Shown here piece after piece: positions 1 to 10,258 of a stretch of 64,000 bases of DNA; position 1 is the first letter of the stretch, and each line of letters opens with the position of its first letter. Made by a program: the position numbers and the translations under genes. Source of the stretch: Podospora anserina (taxonomy: Eukaryota); assembly GCA_017654855.1 (NCBI GenBank), contig CM030332.1:1984001-2048000 (forward strand), given 5' to 3'. The notes below the pieces were generated by a model. It saw only the letters and a list, made by a program, of their open reading frames with translations. It was not told where the DNA came from and made no database searches.

Positions 1-424
1 CGAGGTGGAGGTTGTGGCTGATGTGGAAGGGGTGGTTGTTGACCGTGATCGGGGGAGATGGGGCGGTGGTCGGCTGGGTGGAGGGTGGTGAGAGGGAGGA
101 CATTGTTCTTTGTCGGAGTAGGAGGGTTGTCAAAGGTGTGTTGCTTCCAGGCCGGAATGGTGATGCTGGTAGGGGGAGGACATCTTGGCTTGGGGAGAGT
201 GCTGTTGCTGTCAAGCGAGACAAGGGGAGTTTGGCGTTGTCCTTGTAGGAACTTCCCCATGTGTAGGAGAGAGCAACATATTTGGGCTTTTGGCTGAAGA
301 AAAAGGGGTCGAGAGTGCATACCAAGAGATCAGGAAAGTCTCCTGGCTCTATCGTGAGGATGCGCAGGGCGTCTTTCTCGGTTTCGATGGGTGGGTATGG
401 AAATGATGCATTCTTGGTGGACAT
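1..424 (-). CDS. HET-domain (PF06985-like) heterokaryon-incompatibility/cell-death protein, 5' part; runs off the left edge
   Basis: Manual translation from ATG 424 is open to the window edge; it is absent from the ORF track because no stop lies in the window. MSTKNASFPYPPIETEKDALRILTIEPGDFPDLLVCTL...KPKYVALSYTWG...PITVNNHPFHISHNLHL carries the typical HET elements LRIL(T)IEPG, YxALSYTWG and I.VN...F.I..NL. Confidence 0.88.
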   Translation of the reverse strand, partial: MSTKNASFPYPPIETEKDALRILTIEPGDFPDLLVCTLDPFFFSQKPKYVALSYTWGSSYKDNAKLPLSRLTATALSPSQDVLPLPASPFRPGSNTPLTTLLLRQRTMSSLSPPSTQPTTAPSPPITVNNHPFHISHNLHL

Positions 425-939
425 GACTGGGAGATGTTGGAGAGAAAGGATGAAAGTAAATAGAGCCCCGAACCTCTGGATTCGAAGAGGAACAACCTGT
501 AGAGTTCTGGTATCTGTATCCCCAAAACAAAATGGTATAAGATTTGTAAATGCACAATGACGGCGGGCGGAGCGGAGGAGGGGAACTTACGGTGCCTTGG
601 ACCCGGAGCGGGATGCGGGTGGTAGCAGGCTCCGGCACCACCAGGCGACTGGAGGGAGAGTGTGTGCCTAATGTAAGGACCTTATTGGGGTTGCATGGAT
701 GCCTCTCTAAATGCCACATGCAGGGTGCTAAATTGTGGCTAGAAAGTAGCAACAATATCTGCAGCTAAAAATGGACGGCATTCATGGCACATCTCGACGT
801 ACCTAGGCATGCCACATAGATCAATACTGGCTCAAGGAAGCAGGATGTTGATGAACTGCATTTCTACGTCTACCTATATGAACGGTTGTATTACAGCATT
901 GAGTCACCCTCCGTCGACATCGCACTCCAGATGGTCGCT

Positions 940-2035
940 CTACCCAAGAGACACAAGAACACCCTCCTTGGGAGATAACCCAACAGTATATCTTTGTTTC
1001 TCTGCACCGACAGGTTCATTTGGAACACCAGGCACAAGTTTTAGGTCCGGGTATGCTTGCAAGGCACGGATGACAGCGTAGCTCGCTTCCATCAAAGCAA
1101 AATCCTCTGTGACAAGGTCAGCAGGTGGGCAAAAGCACAAAGGCGGTAGAAAGACTTACTGCCCAAGCAAAGCCTTGGACCGGTATTGAAATCAATGTAA
1201 CCAGCTCCAGGCTTAGCCTTCTTAATCAACTCCCCGTCTTCTCATCTTTCTAGGCGATAGACCCCTGGGTCTAGACCATAGATGGACTCGTTTCGATGTA
1301 GGTGATACGTGGAGAATGAGATTCCGGCCCCTTTCGACAGTAGCACTGGAGATCGGCCATCAGGACCACCTCCTCGAGGGAGGATGGTAGGCTTATTGGT
1401 AAAGCGAAGGTTGAGCGGTAGCGTGGGGGTACAATCTCAAAGCTGCGGGTATCGATCGGTAAGTAAATATCCATGAAGTTGGAACGTCGGTAGAAGCAGC
1501 ATACTTTCATTGAGACAGCAGCGAAGGTAGGGAAGCTTCCTGATATAGTCACGGGTGATATCTCCCTCTGTTGGTACTGTAGCAATATCCCGCTTGAGCC
1601 GCTCCAAGATGTCTCGGTTGCGGACTAGGTGGAGGCTGTCATAACAAGATGTGCGAGTACTTGGGAAAACGAACAATGTGTAGGCAAGATAGGTCTTACA
1701 AGGTCCAAGCCAGAAAGCTCGCTAGCGCATCCCGCCCGGCCATCAAGACATGGAGGAGCTGGTCACGGACCAACTCGAAGTCCTGTATCTCCTTCCAAAG
1801 ATCGATAATGAAACCGTATTTCTCGGTGGTCGCCTCCTCGCCAAAGTCGTCCTGGTACTTCATGGCCCGGGCCGCAAAGAAAGTTGTCCAGTCGCGAACC
1901 GATTTGCAGGCCTTGTGGAACTTGGGTGGTTGTAAATCCAGGCGACATCCGCCAGGCGGGTACGGATGGCAAACACAAAGGCAGCATAGTCGAAGTTGCT
2001 CCTCACAGCTTCACGCTGTGTCTTCTCCATGTTGC
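940..2035 (-). pseudogene. CYP52-like cytochrome P450 pseudogene, C-terminal half only
   Basis: Reconstructed across 3 introns: I-helix VRDQLLHVLMAGRDA, K-helix LNE(T)LRLYP, LPRGGGPDGRSP, PERW degraded to LER* (TGA at 1242-1244), heme motif FNTGPRLCLG, C-terminus DFALMEASY...GVLVSLG*. Frameshifts near 1425-1429 (extra C) and near 1925. No N-terminal half found. Confidence 0.9.
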
Positions 2036-2218
2036 TGTGGGGGAGGGTGACAGTGATATAGCTTGTGCAACCAACAGTCAGCAACTGAGACTTCAGGGTC
2101 CCGGCAGCCCCCATTCTCGTAGCCGCACAACGGCTGATGTCGGGGCCGTGTGCGGGCGTCATCCCGCAGCAGCGTGGATCATGTCCACAGTCGAACTCCG
2201 CACGTAACGCTCTCCAAA

Positions 2219-5200
2219 ATGACGGATCCATTCGGCAGCCTCAGTGCTGGAGTCCTACTCAACGGCCTCAACGAAACCCTTGCTGCCCTCGAAAGACTTG
2301 ACGTCGACGCTATCACAACCGGCTTGTTTGAACAAATCGGCGACCTCAAGGCTATTGTCGAGTCCTTTGACCAGCCCGCCATAGCTGAGCGACGAAGTGC
2401 GTCTTTGCACGTCAGGCCTCGGCACCCAACTGAACGGTTCCTGCAGCCCCTTATCGGCAGTACCGCTGCTATCCTGATCGAATCCGGGGCTTATCTTCGA
2501 CTTTTGCTCTCAAACATCAGAGTGACCGCCGGTGAGAGGGAACAAGGTTTCTGGATTGAGAACGAGCGACGGCTGGAGAACCAGCCATGGTATCTGGAAA
2601 CATCACTTGCCTTGGGACTACACACCAGAGTGCTCAGAGCCCTTTTCACATCCATCGAGTTGCTCAAGATTCAGAACTTTTCTTCACAGACGACGAGGCT
2701 CAGTTCAGCTTCCTACAGGCTCGCTCTACTTTGTCATGCCGGCTCGTCAATAAGCTTGGATTGGCCCGAAACAGCCTTTCACTCATCACCGAAGAAGTCG
2801 TAAACTACGACGCAACAGCCGTTGCAGATGCCATCACAGCCACAGAAGCCGTCACTCTACACGTACCTGACGTCGCGAATCGTCGCTTCGTCATCCCACG
2901 ACCTCTCAGAGCCTGCTTTATCGGCAGGAAAACAGAGCTGGCGAAGCTGGACCAAGCGTTCCACGATGTCACCAAGTCTACTCAGCAACGGTTCGTTATC
3001 TTTGGACCTGGCGGATCAGGAAAGACAGAGCTTGCCTTCAAGTTTGCCACCGAGTACAAAGACAAGTTCTGGGGTGTCTTCTTCATAGATGGCAGCTCTC
3101 AGAAAAACGCCTCCAGCAGTTACGCCGAGATCGCCACCATCGATGGTGTCGAGCCAAACGAGAAGGCAGCCAAGAACTGGTTGACAACCCGCGATCTGCC
3201 CTAGCTACTTATTATCGACAATGTGGATGATGACGAAACAGATCTGGAGGAGCTGTTAACTGTTGGGGACAAGGGCTGTGTGATCATCACGACACGGAAT
3301 CCATTGCATATGACCCATGGCAATGCAGGGGATCGGTATCTTGAACTTCTTGCCATGGACCCCAAGGAGGCGGAGGAGGTAATTCTGCGAGCCGCCGAAG
3401 AGCCGAGGCCCTGGGCACAAACAACTATCGACTCGGCCAACTCGATATGCAAAGCCTTTGGTTTCCTTCCGCTTGCTCTTGTCCAAGCAGCCAAAGCCAT
3501 TCTCAAGGGCATCTGCGACTGGCCCAACTACCTCTCATCATACGACAGCGAGATCAGACGAATCCGCCGCAACTACCATAGCCGGAATAGAAGTATCCCA
3601 AGGGATAAGAAGCGCGTGGACGACGATAGTAGCTTTACAGTCTTCTCTACCTATGAGATCCTACATCGAAACCTCGAGGAGTCTCCGAGGGAGAAATGTC
3701 AGGATGCGGTGGAATTGCTCCACGTGTTTTCCTTCTTTCATTTCCAGAACATACGACCCGACGTGCTTATCAACGCTGCCATCAACCCACTCAAGGAAGA
3801 GCAGCAGCAGAGAGAGGACTCTGAACAGGAGCAGGAACTACACAGCAAGCTTCACAGCCCCAAACGCAAGCCGTGGGGGATGTTCTTCCGCGAGCTCAGA
3901 GCTTACTTTAGCTCTCAAATGGCGACACCACCCCCTTGGCCAGGAGTACTCAGAAACAGGGACAACCTTGGCCTTGAAGATCTGGAGGATGAAGTTGAAG
4001 ACCGGCTTCGAACTGCACCCAGTGTCTTGGTAGAGAGGTCCCTGGTGACGAGGCAGGAGAGGTCTACCGGCCGTTACAGCATGCACAGGCTCATCCGCAA
4101 ATGGGTCAGGGAACTCCCAGAAATGCCGACCTCCCACTCCCACCAAGCGCTCTGGTGCCAGATATCCATGGCGACTTTGTCTTCGAGCATCCGGCGCTTA
4201 CCACACGGCGATAATGAGCCAGAAAACCATGCTCGACGTGAACTACTGCCGCACATCACACACGTACGCTAATGCCAGGCCGAACTAGACAAAACTCTTG
4301 CAGAGAATGCGTTTAAAGCCAAGCCTCTCTGGCCATTGAAGAGACTTATGGGAAGCTTCAGGTGGATCAAGACGTCCGGTTCAGTCGAGTATACGAGGAG
4401 ACAGGCCACTTCGAAGAAGGCTGCGATCTCCAACAGAGCGCCTTGGAGTATGTCTCTGTCAGACTTGGGTCCTGACCATCCGATCGCCATTGCGTTATCC
4501 CTCTTGCTCACCAAGACGCTATGGCTGATGTGCGAGATGGAAAAAGTCGTACGACACATGCGGGCCACCCATCGACTGTGCGTTGACACCTGGGGCGACC
4601 ACCATCCACTCACCCTCGACGTGACCGAAACACTCGGCTCAGCCCTCAGCATACAAGGGAAATACACCGAATCGAACGCCCTCCACGTCGCCAACCTCGA
4701 AAAGATGAAGCGACTGTACGGGGACAAGCATCAAAGACTCTTGAAACTACGCGAAACCTTGCGAGAGTCCTCAACCGGCGCATGGAATACAACGAAGCAA
4801 GCAGGCTATTCCAGATTCTCTAGGAAGGCATGAAAGAGCCCCTCGGCCCAACGCACCTCGAACCTCTCACCAGCCTCGAAGACTTGTCATCCAGTTTCGT
4901 CCGGTACGAAGAAGACAACCCCGACCCCAACCTAGGCGAGCGACTGTTGCAGAGCCGCACAGACTTGACCTTTGTCTACGAGCAACGCAAGGAGCGACTA
5001 GGCAAGGAGCATCCTTACACTCTCCTAAGTTGGCTATTCCTTGCTCGCGTCGAATCGGCAGTAGGCAATAACAAGGAAGCCGAAAAGATAATCCGGCAAG
5101 GCCTCGAAGTGGCAGAACGCAACATTGGCTCGCAGCATCTCGCTGTTCTCATGGCCAAGTGCATTCACGCCGAGGTACTGGTCAAACTGAAGAGGTTCTC

Positions 5201-5501
5201 CGAGGCCGAGAAGCTATTTTACATGCTGATTGATCGGTCGTGGTACACCAAGACTGTGGGTGAAGACAGCGATCATCCTGATCGGCTTGCTAACATTTGG
5301 TTCCTCGCCATGTGCTTGGAGCAGCAGGGCAAGTGGGAGAAGGCACTGGAGCTGTGCAGGGAGTTCTCGGTCGGTATTGAGGCTATTGGTGGCCGTGGCT
5401 TGGGGATGAACCACAAGATGTATCCAAAAGTGATGAAGAAGATTGCGGAGCTGGAGGGGAAGATCGCAGGTGGGGGGCAGTTTCGAGAAGCAGCCGTTTA
5501 G
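2219..5501 (+). pseudogene. Fungal NLR (helical N-terminal domain - NB-ARC - TPR repeats), inactivated
   Basis: FIGRKTEL, P-loop GPGGSGKT, Walker B P*LLIIDNVDD (TAG 3202-3204 in place of W), IITTRN, GFLPLALVQAA, YSMHRLI, and TPR-type repeats LGPDHP, WGDHHPLTL, LGPTHLEPL, LGKEHPYTL. Further stops at 4270 (TAA) and 4821 (TAG); frameshifts near 2670, 4355, 4468 and 4733. Confidence 0.92.
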
Positions 5502-7574
5502 GGACACTGAAAAGGGCAGGAGTGTACAGATTAAGATTGAAGAGGCTTAGGTAGATGATGTTCGGACGGATGAGATAGTAATCTAAAGGGCTTTGTGGGT
5601 GTGCTTTGGAAAGTTGGGATGGAAAACTGCATGGAAGGATAGGATACCCGGGGGTGTTTGTTGCATAGCGTTTGTTTTGTATTTTCTGAGATCTTGCTGA
5701 TTCTCTTGCTCTGTATGCATTGGCAAAATGGCCCATCTCATTTGATAGGTAGATCGCAAATGTTGCATTTTAATTCACAAAGCATGTGATGTGTTCAAAG
5801 AGCGAGGACTGCTCGGTCCCCCTTTCCAGACTACTGCAGGCACCCTGCGGCCGTGTGGGTCAGGAACATGCAGAAATTGTTTGATCACCCAACTATCGAC
5901 CCTTGTTGAGAAAAGAACGCAGAACACCTCACCTTTCTGAACTGGTCTACCCCTCCCACATAAGAATTTCAGCTGTTACAAAGCTCAAGCAACTTCAAAT
6001 AACATCAAAGTATGTAGACTCGCTGTCAAAACGCTTTCCCAGCGCCACCATTCAACTCGCAGGGAGCTAATCCCGAGTACTTTCAACTCAAAATGAGCGT
6101 ACTCGAATCCGACGAAAGGAATTGCAAGCAGGAGCCCCTTCCCAAACTTCTGGCACTGACAAGCGAAAAATCAACATGTCATCCGAGCAAGCAAGAAAAT
6201 GGTGGATTGGAACGGGCACAATGGGTGGTGGCTCGGACGGCGTCTCCTCAACGTATTGGAGGCCGTAAGTTTAGTCGCCAACATGATGCTGGGAATAGAG
6301 AAGATGGGGCTGGTTATAGTAAGCTTTGATGGGATTAGAAGACACTTTAGCCTCGATTGGAGTGAGCTACCTAGCTGAAGGTAGACACTCGAATAAAATA
6401 ATATTGTGGGAGCAACTGTCAAGAGGATGAGAACAGAGCGACTAAAAGTTGATGAGAGCAACTATTGAGACGATGAAACTTACACTAAAACGTGATAAAA
6501 ACTGGGATATAAGGAGCAAAGTGGAATCCGCAAAATATTAAGACTACTCTTTACACCAAACAGATTTCTAATGGTCTATAAGGTAACTTTGTTAAAGATA
6601 TATTACATGGCCAAGATGAGATGAAATCGCCCGTGGCATGGATGCAGAGCAACAAACTCATGCCCACTGCTCTTAGCTAGACTTTTTTCAAAGTTTCGCT
6701 CTGAATTCTGCCCAAATGCACTGCTCGTCCCCAGAAGGTGGAGGCTTACAGCTGTCCAGTCAGGCACAGTTGGATAATAGCCTTGCAATTCGGTCCCATC
6801 CCTGGGGCTGATGCTTCCTCCTGTAGATGGTGACACTCCTTGTGGTAATTGATAAGTTGTGAATTATTTCGATGTGATAGCTCAAAGGCTACCCTGACTG
6901 TACTCACCCTTCTTGCGAAGGCATAGGGCAAAAGAAATAACACCATCAACAGAAAGGTCAACTCTTGAAGGATCATGGCACATTGATGAATCCAGCAATC
7001 CCATCTTGCAATATGTATATTTTAAAATGGGAAAAAGGTCTATTTCTCAATGTCTGCATTGTAGATATACCTATGCAGACTTAATCAACTGCAGAAGTAT
7101 TGTGTATCCAGTAGATGAAACTTGAATCAACCGAGCCTTCTCTTGCACATCTCAAGAACAGAGATAATCAAACGTCACTGCCTATGGACCTTTGGTATGA
7201 CGAAATGGGGGTGGATAGGTGCCGAAAGAATTGTCAGACCAGATTCAAGGGGAGAGAAGCGGTGTCGTTTCCTACTAACTGACAGGGGCCCTACACGTCA
7301 ACAGCTGCCATACCCATCTGTTCCTTCCACATTCAATACCGCCTTCTCGTGTCCAGACCCTAGGAAAGGGACCCGCACGGGCACTGAGTGGTAGATAATA
7401 CCTCCAGGCTCTTGTCAAATTTCCTTCTCTTCTCTTTTTTTCCTCATCCCATCCCCACCACCGCAACACCATCACCAAACTCTCTCCTCTCGTCGGTTCT
7501 TTCGTTCCAGCCCCATCTCACTCTTCAGCAGAATATACTGACGGCTGTTTCTATCTGCAGAAAAAATAAACAAG

Positions 7575-8149
7575 ATGAACGGAGACGTGGGAAGGGACGC
7601 TGGGGGAGTAAACGGGACTGTAAGTGATCACTCTATTCTTCTCTCGCCTCTTTTCGCCACCTATATCCCTCTGACCCAGCGACTACGAGCCTTGTATGCT
7701 AACGAACTGCGTCTCTAGGTGGGTTCGGGAGCGTCTGCCGGGACGCAAGAGGTGAGGCAGGCGGCGGTTGCCCGCTTGCAGGGAGCCACCATGAGGCGGC
7801 AAGCGGTTGGTGACCTGGCGGCGGCAACTGCCCGCCTGAGCTTGGGGGGCCCTGTTCTCACCAGTAAGTTGCCCGCATGATCACTTCTCTTCACTGCCTT
7901 TCCTCAACTTCATCTTCTTGACCGACACTCTCCATCTTCTCCACAAACCCCTTGTCCCTTCACCTTCTTAGTACAAATCATGACACTGACGTTGATGGTT
8001 GCATAGACGGACAACCCTGGGCCGCCTCGGCCTCGACCGGCAGCGCACCGGAGCTGCCACGGATTCTCATCACCAGCCCTGATGGGACGTCAGTGTGGGC
8101 AACTGACGCTCTCGGAGGGAATGGTCCCAGTGGCAGCAACGGATCCTGA
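7575..8149 (+). CDS. Three-exon orphan micro-protein (110 aa, G/A/S-rich) with a PxIxIT motif
   Basis: Exons 7575-7619, 7719-7863 and 8007-8149 total 333 nt in frame. Both introns have GTAAGT donors, GCTAAC/ACTGAC branch sites and TAG acceptors. Start context is CAAGATG. No homology recognised. Confidence 0.55.
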
Positions 8150-9136
8150 GCCTGAGTCAACGGCGGAGGCCCAGCCGTCCCAGACGGGGCAAGCCAAAGC
8201 CAGACTCGTTGGACCCATCAACCTGTCCAGCTCCAGTCCCAACCGCGAACCCAGCGCCGACAACGATAGGTGGGCGGGGGAGGAGAGGGGAAGGGGAGGT
8301 GGGAGGTGGGCTGGGAGCAGTGCGGGCCCGCGGGGGCGATAATACCTGGGCGTTTGGAGGCGGCGACGGGGGGGTTTGGTCGGTGGTTTTTTTCTAAATT
8401 TTCTTTTCTTTTCTTTAAAACAAAACAAGAAGCCCGTGTGGTTTCTTTTTGCTTCTTTGGACCTGAACAACTTCCCATGAATGATTGTGATCGTGATATA
8501 TCTGGCAATATTTACTTTCAATTTGAATTCCTTCCTCGTACCTACAACCAGCATAGTTTGACACTACTGCCCAAGGCACGACCATTACTACGGCTCCCGG
8601 CATTCTCTAGAAGGGACTCCGAGATTTAGGCTTGAAAGACTTGGATCTGAAAAAGATCACTGGGATTCCTCGAGGAGCTGAGTCGAAGAAAGGTGCACCA
8701 GTTGCCTCCTTCTGCTTTCCATTGCTTTCCATCTCACCTGTATGGCCGTTTCTTGCCTGATGTTTGCGCTCTCAGTGGCCACGCGCTGGTTCTCAGGGTA
8801 GGTACGTCAGTCTGGGTGGTAGGTGACATCGGTGGATACCTAGCACTGCTTCCGTTCTTTCCCACCCACAAAATGGTATAAGCCAACCAGCACTTGCAAT
8901 ATTTTCCGCTCCCACTTTTCTCTCCCAACCCACCACTTCTCTCTCCCCACCTCTTCCTCTCTCCATCTTCTGCTTTTCTCTCTCCAGCCCTCTTCCAACA
9001 ACTTTGCTTCCTCCCATCGCTCTATCACACATTGCTATCCATATTCTATTCTTTTACCACCATTTCTCTCACCTCTACACTGGCGTCTCATCATCTTCAC
9101 CCCAAACCTACCATACCGCAACCTAGTCGATCAATC

Positions 9137-9712
9137 ATGTTGACTGCAACCTCGACTTCAACAGCACTGAAGAGAGTTTTGGATCTCACACATTCGAATC
9201 AAACACATCCGACCTTGATTGTTCACCTGGCACGAGCCCTAAGCTTTGTTGCTCTGCCCACGTGGCCAGGCAGTCGATCGTAAGTTCCTTGTCTATAACT
9301 GCCTACCGATGGCACGAAGTAGTCTAACACTCAGAGGACGAACAGCCATGCTCGACACCGCCCCAACGATGGGCAAGTACGTGTACATGACCGTTGATAT
9401 TCCCAGCACTAGCTGCAGATGTACATCGGATACAGGGTGTCCATGAGGTGAGTCACATATCTTTAATAGGCATGATGCGAAGCTAACAACACCATCACAG
9501 TATTATTGCCAAAGAACAGTTTGATGGATCAAGAACATCGAACTTGTCGAGCCATCTCTGCCACAGGACGGCGGGTTGGCCACAGCGCCACGCCTGGGTT
9601 ACTGGTATGCTACATTCTGTCCACCGAGATTTCAGTCAAAACTAATAGTCAGTGGACAGGCTTTCTGGCCCATCGTCTTTTTGACTTGCGGGTCTCTTGT
9701 TTATCCTATTGA
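9137..9712 (+). other. Multi-intron orphan transcript (possible 117-aa ORF or spliced lncRNA)
   Basis: Putative introns 9280-9334, 9377-9435 (weak branch site), 9448-9500 and 9605-9659 join into one 354-nt open frame. The product has no recognisable motifs. Confidence 0.3.
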
Positions 9713-9790
9713 GACAATCGCTCGAGCGAATGCGACAAGAAAAACCCGCATTATCACTTCTCTTCCCTGCCTTTCCTCAACTTCATTTTC

Positions 9791-10258
9791 TTGACCGACC
9801 TTCGACGGATCCTCCTCTCCTGTCGCGGTGGTTGTCGGCAACGACAGCCACCATGGCGGAGGGGAGGCATCTTGAAGGATTGGATGGTGTGGTCGGTGTC
9901 GGGGGGTGTCATCCCCGACATTGAGCTTCTCCCAAACATTGGGGGTGCTCCTGCGGCGTGGAAGGGCACCAGGGCCGATGCTGAGGCGGAGGAAGATGAG
10001 ATGGACGGCGCCGATGAACCTGATCTTGATGCGGCTATCCACCAGGCATCCTCGGTGCCAATCCCTGATTGGTATCAGTGCTTGTGCTGTGGTGGCTACA
10101 GCAGGCTTGAAGTCCTTGACATTCTTCGACGCATTGACAATGACATGGATCTATCCTTACTGTTGTCTCGGATATTGAAGGGGAGGAGGATGGGGCGGAT
10201 GAGGCAGAATCAGATAGAGATGAAACAGGCACTTGACATTTATTTAGAACACCAATAA
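9791..10258 (+). CDS. Hypothetical protein or gene fragment
   Basis: 155-codon ORF with protein-like composition: acidic patch EAEEDEMDGADEPDLD, CLCCGG, amphipathic C-terminal helices. First ATG is at 9884; true start is unclear. Confidence 0.35.
   Translation: MTDLRRILLSCRGGCRQRQPPWRRGGILKDWMVWSVSGGVIPDIELLPNIGGAPAAWKGTRADAEAEEDEMDGADEPDLDAAIHQASSVPIPDWYQCLCCGGYSRLEVLDILRRIDNDMDLSLLLSRILKGRRMGRMRQNQIEMKQALDIYLEHQ

Follow-up and report, generated by a model that had tools for sequence, protein, structure and literature searches.

We have analyzed a 64,000-nucleotide stretch of Podospora anserina DNA (contig CM030332.1, positions 1,984,001 to 2,048,000; hereafter the window), whose left end carries the 5′ end of a HET-domain gene, a relic of a cytochrome P450 gene and the pseudogene of a NOD-like receptor (NLR) that has an NB-ARC-type ATPase and tetratricopeptide repeats (TPR). 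This locus is a decayed copy of a conserved cassette, in which HET and P450 point away from a divergent NLR gene (HET <- P450 <- -> NLR). The new element is the conserved NLR-P450 pair with its optional HET gene; systems linking an NLR to a partner are already known.

The initial annotation had recognized the two outer genes, namely a HET-domain open reading frame (ORF) on the minus strand and a broken NB-ARC-TPR NLR 1.8 kb away. Both were borne out: the HET ORF has its ATG at 424 and 141 amino acids open to the window edge, with PF06985 matches in 32 of 33 homologues, and the NLR starts on the plus strand with an ATG at 2219. The direct head-to-head arrangement proposed for them was not, as the P450 relic occupies the 1.8-kb interval, so that there is no shared HET-NLR promoter.

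Linkage of P450 and NLR genes across fungi

The position of the P450 gene was scored in the best 80 of 333 metagenome loci, which had been fetched by NLR alignment alone. It lay divergently upstream of the NLR in 59 loci and convergently downstream in three; it was absent from three, scored as such with at least 4.2 kb of upstream sequence, and 15 contigs were too short. Dereplication at 90% gave 32, 2, 1 and 10 of 45 clusters (divergent, convergent, absent and short, respectively) and dereplication at 70% gave 21, 2, 0 and 6 of 29. Since L053/L056, scored as short, represent a deleted locus without P450, 32 of 36 is a stricter figure than 32 of the 35 informative clusters. The other flanks contained 10 P450 matches in 659 kb, seven being a second P450 in one cluster and three the convergent cases. 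The linkage persisted for NLRs only 32 to 49% identical over the ATPase, while the genes flanking the pair varied from locus to locus (43 ORFs scanned). Such recurrence in relatives ruled out that the P450 relic results from a chance rearrangement between unrelated genes. The upstream region shared by P450 and NLR measured ~0.5-0.7 kb in L001 and L005.

In the convergent cases (L049, L050 and L077), the P450 lies downstream of the NLR instead of upstream, suggestive of a linkage that outlasts rearrangement. Other loci (L057-L061, L075 and L076) have another related P450 close to the pair, encoded on the opposite strand and located ~8.5-10 kb upstream of the NLR ATPase. In L078, the NLR is immediately followed (8445-10199) by another ORF that contains TPRs and has an ECM29 N-terminal match.

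The same arrangement was seen among annotated proteins. At least 35 of 120 P450 matches apparently share a contig with an NLR match, and consecutive NLR-P450 gene models were present in Apiospora marii, Lophiotrema nucula, Tothia fuscella and Penicillium macrosclerotiorum, as well as, by locus tag, in Nemania. The accession-consecutive pairs span three classes (Sordariomycetes, Dothideomycetes and Eurotiomycetes). We have also inspected 10 NLR-HET accession pairs, pre-selected as apparently lying on the same contig. Their accessions differed by 2 in eight genomes and by 1 in two, showing that HET and NLR are not unlinked in relatives, and the middle accession was a P450 in the 4/4 genomes where it was visible. 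Consecutive HET-P450-NLR models were found in Hypoxylon trugodes (KAI1393502/03/04), Podospora australis (KAK4184533/34/35) and Apiospora (KAK8136874/75/76 and KAK8046223/24/25).

HET genes were detected in seven of the eight clusters of the close NLR subfamily and in none of the 37 other clusters (DNA loci, 90% dereplication), with two HETs of that subfamily as queries, which distant HETs could escape. As in the window, the HET gene followed the P450 in tandem, with the exception of L008, where it was inverted; P450 was located between HET and NLR in the window and in L001-L004, L007, L009 and L010. This distribution suggests that HET is an optional add-on to the P450-NLR pair, confined to one NLR subfamily (HET-P450-NLR). 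In Apiospora kogelbergensis, a 1174-amino-acid gene model (P0282) joins P450 to HET, probably through an annotation merge and possibly as a real fusion.

We have weighed these data against the two-gene sensor-executioner het locus put forward initially, in which the NLR senses, the HET protein executes and the window holds a strain-specific dead allele, the P450 being a passenger. The linkage part of that proposal stood: HET and NLR were linked beyond chance, in all 10 of the genomes inspected, with consecutive accessions in two, and at least 17 of 33 HET matches apparently share a contig with an NLR match. The visible HET part is, in addition, little decayed. However, it is the P450 that stands head-to-head with the NLR, HET being a third gene that may be absent; the constant neighbor is P450 (32 of 45 clusters) and not HET (7 of 45). 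Furthermore, the NLR lesions are common to other strains and the decay is common to close relatives, as detailed below, and the accessible text of PMC13449251 has all nine P. anserina het loci characterized, the sole NB-ARC-TPR among them being het-z, with a patatin domain. We consider a two-gene het locus very unlikely.

The histories of the two constant genes were compared through their trees. For 36 protein pairs, the NLR and P450 tree distances correlated with a coefficient of 0.74 and 5 of 10-13 well supported splits were shared; for 29 locus pairs, the values were 0.53 and 11 of 17-18 supported splits. For the protein pairs, the main groups recurred largely in both trees; they brought together Sordariomycetes, Dothideomycetes and Penicillium, and two of them included Hypoxylon. 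As far as trees can tell, this co-divergence shows long co-inheritance, not interaction. Groups that mix fungal classes would also fit movement between lineages, and hence a chance association, or unrelated genes hitch-hiking together in a mobile island. Given an orientation and spacing fixed over deep divergence amid differing flanks, and a background of 10 matches in 659 kb, we regard such an origin as extremely improbable.

Decay of the Podospora anserina copy

The features of the locus are collected in Table 1. That intact NLRs exist elsewhere, as had been anticipated, was confirmed by the closest ones, P0002-P0004 from Apiosordaria backusii, Triangularia verruculosa and T. setosa, which have 1120-1123 amino acids and 81-83% identity to the window NLR; the cassette persists intact in Triangularia and Apiosordaria. 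The window gene did not suffer the single inactivation first assumed, but carries 4 stops and ~5 frameshifts. Its end had been placed at 5501, where a shifted frame stops; the ancestral end is at 5586.

Table 1. Coordinates of the HET-P450-NLR locus in the window
Feature	Position	Strand	Remarks
HET-domain gene, 5′ end	1..424	minus	ATG at 424; 141 codons; open to window edge
Cytochrome P450 relic	868..2042	minus	C-terminal ~305 codons left of ~529; named by its sources as alkane-hydroxylase type
P450 relic exons	2037-1700, 1635-1505, 1442-1160, 1106-868	minus	Based on splice joints, GT-AG ends and spliced translation
P450 relic lesions	TGA 1244-1242	minus	Plus two frameshifts; heme cysteine motif retained
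Deletion junction	2043..2218		First ~220 codons of the P450 lost, together with the shared divergent promoter region or most of it
NLR pseudogene	2219..5586	plus	Intronless; NB-ARC-TPR type
NLR N-terminal helical bundle	~2219-2850	plus	
NLR NB-ARC-type ATPase	P-loop 3004-3027; Walker B 3205-3222	plus	
NLR TPR repeats	~4340-5450	plus	
NLR premature stops	3202 (TAG), 4270 (TAA), 4821 (TAG), 5548 (TAG)	plus	First stop just before Walker B
NLR first frameshift	2675..2685 (~2680)	plus	Product shortened to 194 codons; from three-frame translations and tblastn frame changes
NLR further frameshifts	~4340, 4468, 4734, 5475 (approximate)	plus	From three-frame translations and tblastn frame changes

We have compared four sequencing runs (X9, X13, X15 and X17) of 24 candidates, from a list that favors near-identical strains. 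The DNA runs X9 and X13 gave one gapless contig over 1-8070 with eight differences, of which none was listed within the NLR. Run X15 yielded an unspliced contig over 2282-5754 with two substitutions and no gaps, and X17 covered parts. Neither a repaired NLR lesion nor a different haplotype was present in the four runs, and the het-type allelic polymorphism that had been suggested was not seen among them. The lesions occurred in all three runs covering them and decay was also found in two close relatives, at odds with an inactivation in this strain.

These relatives are represented by the Logan ORFs P0018 and P0020, which are 89-91% identical to the window NLR, lack its first two stops and end early. 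The three sequences have 16 derived residues in common. In 112 conserved NLR columns, P0018, P0020 and the window presented 10, 10 and 12 changes, respectively, against none in P0002-P0004; more distant aligned homologues had 0-20 changes in the same columns. Lesions common to strains and derived residues common to relatives indicate that decay began before these lineages split. Judged from these alignments, the NLR loss is an old decay, not a strain allele. Joint decay was also observed elsewhere: L010 has a 5′-deleted P450, a frameshifted NLR and a HET stub, and L053/L056 are a further case.

As a cause of decay, repeat-induced point mutation was discarded, since its signature was missing (GC content 53%, TpA/ApT 0.65, (CpA+TpG)/(ApC+GpT) 1.25). 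A rescue of the NLR by A-to-I editing of stop codons was likewise rejected: the three TAGs are at tryptophan positions, but the TAA and ~5 frameshifts would remain.

The window P450 piece matched Pfam p450 with E 7e-4 (about 943-2042) and was 74-82% identical to a full-length P450 of Cercophora samala (P0177, 529 amino acids). The tblastn alignment of P0177 covered residues 211-529 only, with real likeness from ~223. Besides its stop, the relic has 11 of 123 conserved columns changed, compared with 4 of 124 in P0177. The P450 alignment stops at 2078, leaving 141 bp to the NLR ATG, whereas the same point is 1.1-1.4 kb away in L001, L005 and L007. This difference in spacing points to a deletion of the P450 5′ part and the shared upstream region.

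Because they contain spliced joints, runs X15 and X17 were regarded as RNA, no listed run being recorded as such; stretches that they leave uncovered carry no evidential weight. Three GT-AG introns of the P450 relic were spliced in both. Thus, both pseudogenes appear to be still transcribed (2234-5754 and 868-2037), with the P450 relic correctly spliced, despite a largely deleted shared upstream region.

For the HET gene, only the first conserved block is visible in the window, and the Pfam HET match of this piece was weak (E 0.072). Its identity rests on the homologues: 32 of the 33 found carry PF06985, the best being a 758-amino-acid protein of Triangularia setosa with 76% identity, and the full-length relatives P0122 and P0128 matched PF06985 with E 1e-26. 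The tryptophan-glutamate block was invariant in 30 aligned homologues. In the visible part, 1 of 31 conserved columns was changed, versus 0, 0 and 1 in three intact relatives, and an RNA contig of run X17 (152-531) spans the HET start. No own-species HET protein of at least 248 amino acids was found among the 33 homologues, nor among 150 listed representatives at 50% identity, an uninformative set in this regard.

NLR architecture and candidate mechanism

The window NLR retains a P-loop and a Walker B of the NB-ARC/STAND type and C-terminal TPR repeats (TPR_12, E 2e-17 in the window piece and 5e-31 in P0002). In relatives, the ATPase was matched by the Pfam families AAA_16 and NB-ARC, the latter above cut-off only in P0121. 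The model of the relative P0005 (predicted local distance difference test score of 82.6) starts with a helical bundle, followed by a STAND ATPase and TPR repeats, and its best fold matches were the STAND-TPR protein 6mfv and plant resistosomes.

The NLR N-terminus models as a confident helical domain, and the N-terminal profile of the subfamily matched PigL_N-positive relatives (P0114, E 5e-10; L021, E 8e-5). PigL_N is the renamed Helo_like_N. In the accessible text of PMC9815663, Helo_like_N is aligned with MLKL. The N-terminal model superposed on MLKL with Z 9.5 (root-mean-square deviation 2.6, 98 aligned residues) and on Rx-CC with Z 9.5 (2.8, 105 aligned). Profiles and models together are consistent with the N-terminal domain being a HeLo-like executioner. 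The NLR had first been seen as a sensor without an effector of its own, a view that this helical bundle related to PigL_N/HeLo-like domains does not support. The N-termini of distant P450-linked NLRs in seven other loci (L052, L054, L057, L065, L072, L074 and L078) matched neither Pfam nor the subfamily profile and are possibly undescribed domains.

The conserved pairing makes it highly probable that P450 and NLR work in one pathway. With somewhat better than even confidence, this pathway would be one of regulated cell death or defense, in view of how the NLR is built, of the HET gene attached to the pair and of a patchy, decay-prone distribution. The complete immune module that we propose, with the P450 upstream, the NLR bundle killing and HET as an add-on, falls slightly short of an even chance. 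In such a module, a short shared region would drive divergent transcription of P450 and NLR. The membrane-anchored P450 would act upstream as a guarded protein, its inhibition or modification being detected by the NLR TPR domain; alternatively, it might oxidize a lipid or a foreign hydrophobic compound into the NLR ligand. The NLR would then oligomerize via its ATPase and the N-terminal four-helix bundle would damage membranes. In one NLR subfamily, the added HET gene, whose domain is TIR-related, may serve as a second executioner or amplifier. In this Podospora lineage, the P450 5′ part and the shared promoter region were deleted, and decay of both genes preceded the divergence of the sampled strains.

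Several observations weigh against this module. Linkage alone yields co-divergence and kin share gene order, and the permutation p values for the NLR/P450 tree correlation ignore relatedness. L035 has an apparently intact NLR with no P450 within 10 kb, and in L009 an apparently open NLR is accompanied by a P450 without its first ~120 residues. In two genomes, HET and NLR are annotated with no gene model in between, and the HET and NLR matches of Xylaria acuta are apparently on separate contigs. As for the executioner, the MLKL match was tied with unrelated helical bundles and was below the Z of ~13 that the tool expects for such folds. Foldseek with the N-terminal model returned nothing under E 0.001, the N-terminus of the close subfamily itself had no Pfam match, its Atlas scores (0.83-0.86) are leads only, and the N-terminal profile failed to match the seven most distant N-termini tried. 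Lastly, the NLR is ~60% conserved between Sordariales and Xylariales, unlike known fast-evolving het genes. A predicted complex of P450 (P0164 45-521, with heme) and the NLR TPR part (P0015 540-995), computed without alignments, scored 0.12, the mark being 0.34, and weighs on neither side.

The P450 homologues kept their enzyme motifs, with the heme cysteine motif in 43, ExxR in 44 and the I-helix motif in 40 of 44 full-length proteins. This would also suit a P450 acting downstream, switched on by the activated NLR and killing or signaling by membrane-lipid oxidation or leaked reactive oxygen, comparable to the lipase and phosphorylase effector domains of other fungal NLRs. Enzymatic effectors are common in fungal NLRs (accessible text of PMC4986451), and two Sordariales NLR gene models with a p450 domain occur in the supplement of PMC12258605 (12 of 17 files searched), which may be annotation merges, as may the Apiospora model P0282. 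On the other hand, an executioner is already present in the NLR N-terminal bundle and, in one subfamily, in HET. P450s depend on a reductase, and activation by oligomerization is not known for them. A P450 effector seems unlikely to us, and the P450 is placed upstream because outputs already exist in the NLR N-terminus and in HET.

The source names of these P450s have a bearing on a non-immune role. They read n-alkane-inducible or alkane hydroxylase, from which we take the enzymes to be putative members of the CYP52 type. The closest solved structures by sequence were carotenoid hydroxylases, BM3 and CYP3A5, and a PDB sequence search with the L001 P450 exon gave no match. A STAND protein could sense a lipid or xenobiotic and be co-regulated with a detoxifying P450, in the manner of MalT, a non-immune STAND raised as such in the accessible text of PMC13449251. 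The strong conservation, the source names and the generic N-terminal fold match are in line with this. Conversely, Pfam detected no DNA-binding domain in the NLR, one subfamily has HET, a cell-death domain, as a fixed neighbor of the pair, and a patchy presence with repeated decay fits immune genes. A non-immune module is, in our judgment, improbable.

In a bolder reading, the P450 would serve as the chemical antenna of the NLR, either as guarded bait for P450-binding antagonists or as maker of an oxidized-lipid ligand, with an MLKL-like bundle and, in one lineage, HET/TIR as output, in an immune unit widespread in fungi; we rate this possible, but on balance doubtful. If true, it would provide a testable trigger of fungal NLRs outside self/non-self fusion, in a unit that may move between fungal classes.

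Relation to known systems and other features of the window

The nearest likeness is to het-z/plp-1 with sec-9 of Podospora and Neurospora (vic2 in Cryphonectria), where an NB-ARC-TPR NLR has a proposed guarded partner. A guard model for PLP-1/SEC-9 and a link of HeLo-like domains to MLKL are found in the available part of PMC12881547. The cassette differs in having a helical-bundle N-terminus instead of patatin, a P450 partner instead of a SNARE and no polymorphic alleles seen. Similarly, nwd2/het-s and other NLR-effector pairs place an NLR beside a cell-death gene, with decay of the partner on some haplotypes (PMC13449251, accessible text). Here, in contrast, the NLR is of the NB-ARC-TPR and not the NACHT-WD40 type, a full 200-residue N-terminal domain replaces the short amyloid motif, and an enzyme gene lies between NLR and HET. 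The HNWD genes het-d, het-e as well as het-r, acting with het-c, tie HET to NLR signaling with a lipid-handling partner, het-c being a glycolipid transfer protein; in our case HET is a separate gene, and TPR takes the place of an array of near-identical repeats.

The head-to-head NLR pairs of plants likewise diverge from a short upstream region in common, although the partner here is an enzyme and not a second NLR. Among Sordariales, head-to-head NLR-NLR pairs are seldom found, with 13 of 225 two-NLR clusters (accessible text of PMC12258605). The P450s resemble CYP52-clan alkane/fatty-acid hydroxylases in the source names of the homologues and in the kept heme, ExxR and I-helix motifs, and differ in being tied to an NLR.

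No description of an NLR-P450 pair was found in the literature searched, outside which subscription journals largely fall. P450 has no occurrence in the main text, as accessible, of PMC12258605, PMC9815663, PMC4986451, PMC3689799, PMC13449251 and PMC12881547. P450s are induced in barrage according to the accessible text of PMC7849911, in which the identifier of the Cryphonectria NLR is unmentioned. The accessible text of PMC13449251 describes NLR pseudogenes as common in P. anserina, partner-linked fungal NLRs as known and the function of most fungal NLRs as unknown.

The natural triggers of fungal NLRs outside allorecognition are an open question, and a conserved enzyme partner provides a large NLR lineage with a testable candidate for its input or output. 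Although the dead copy in the window matters little on its own, it documents joint loss, and laboratory strains of the P. anserina type offer a natural null in which the intact cassette of a close, harmless relative could be expressed.

To the right of the locus, short contigs of both RNA-type runs (X15 and X17) fell on 5886-6306, a stretch that lacks an assigned gene, and 7872-8158 contains dispersed repeat pieces of ~50 bp that also match other contigs. The stretch 12411-60619 holds ordinary genes, among them a sugar transporter, enoyl-CoA hydratase, amino-acid permease, homocysteine methyltransferase, a hydantoinase-like protein, Ca exchanger, WD40 protein, trehalose synthase/phosphatase, aminotransferase IV and K transporter.

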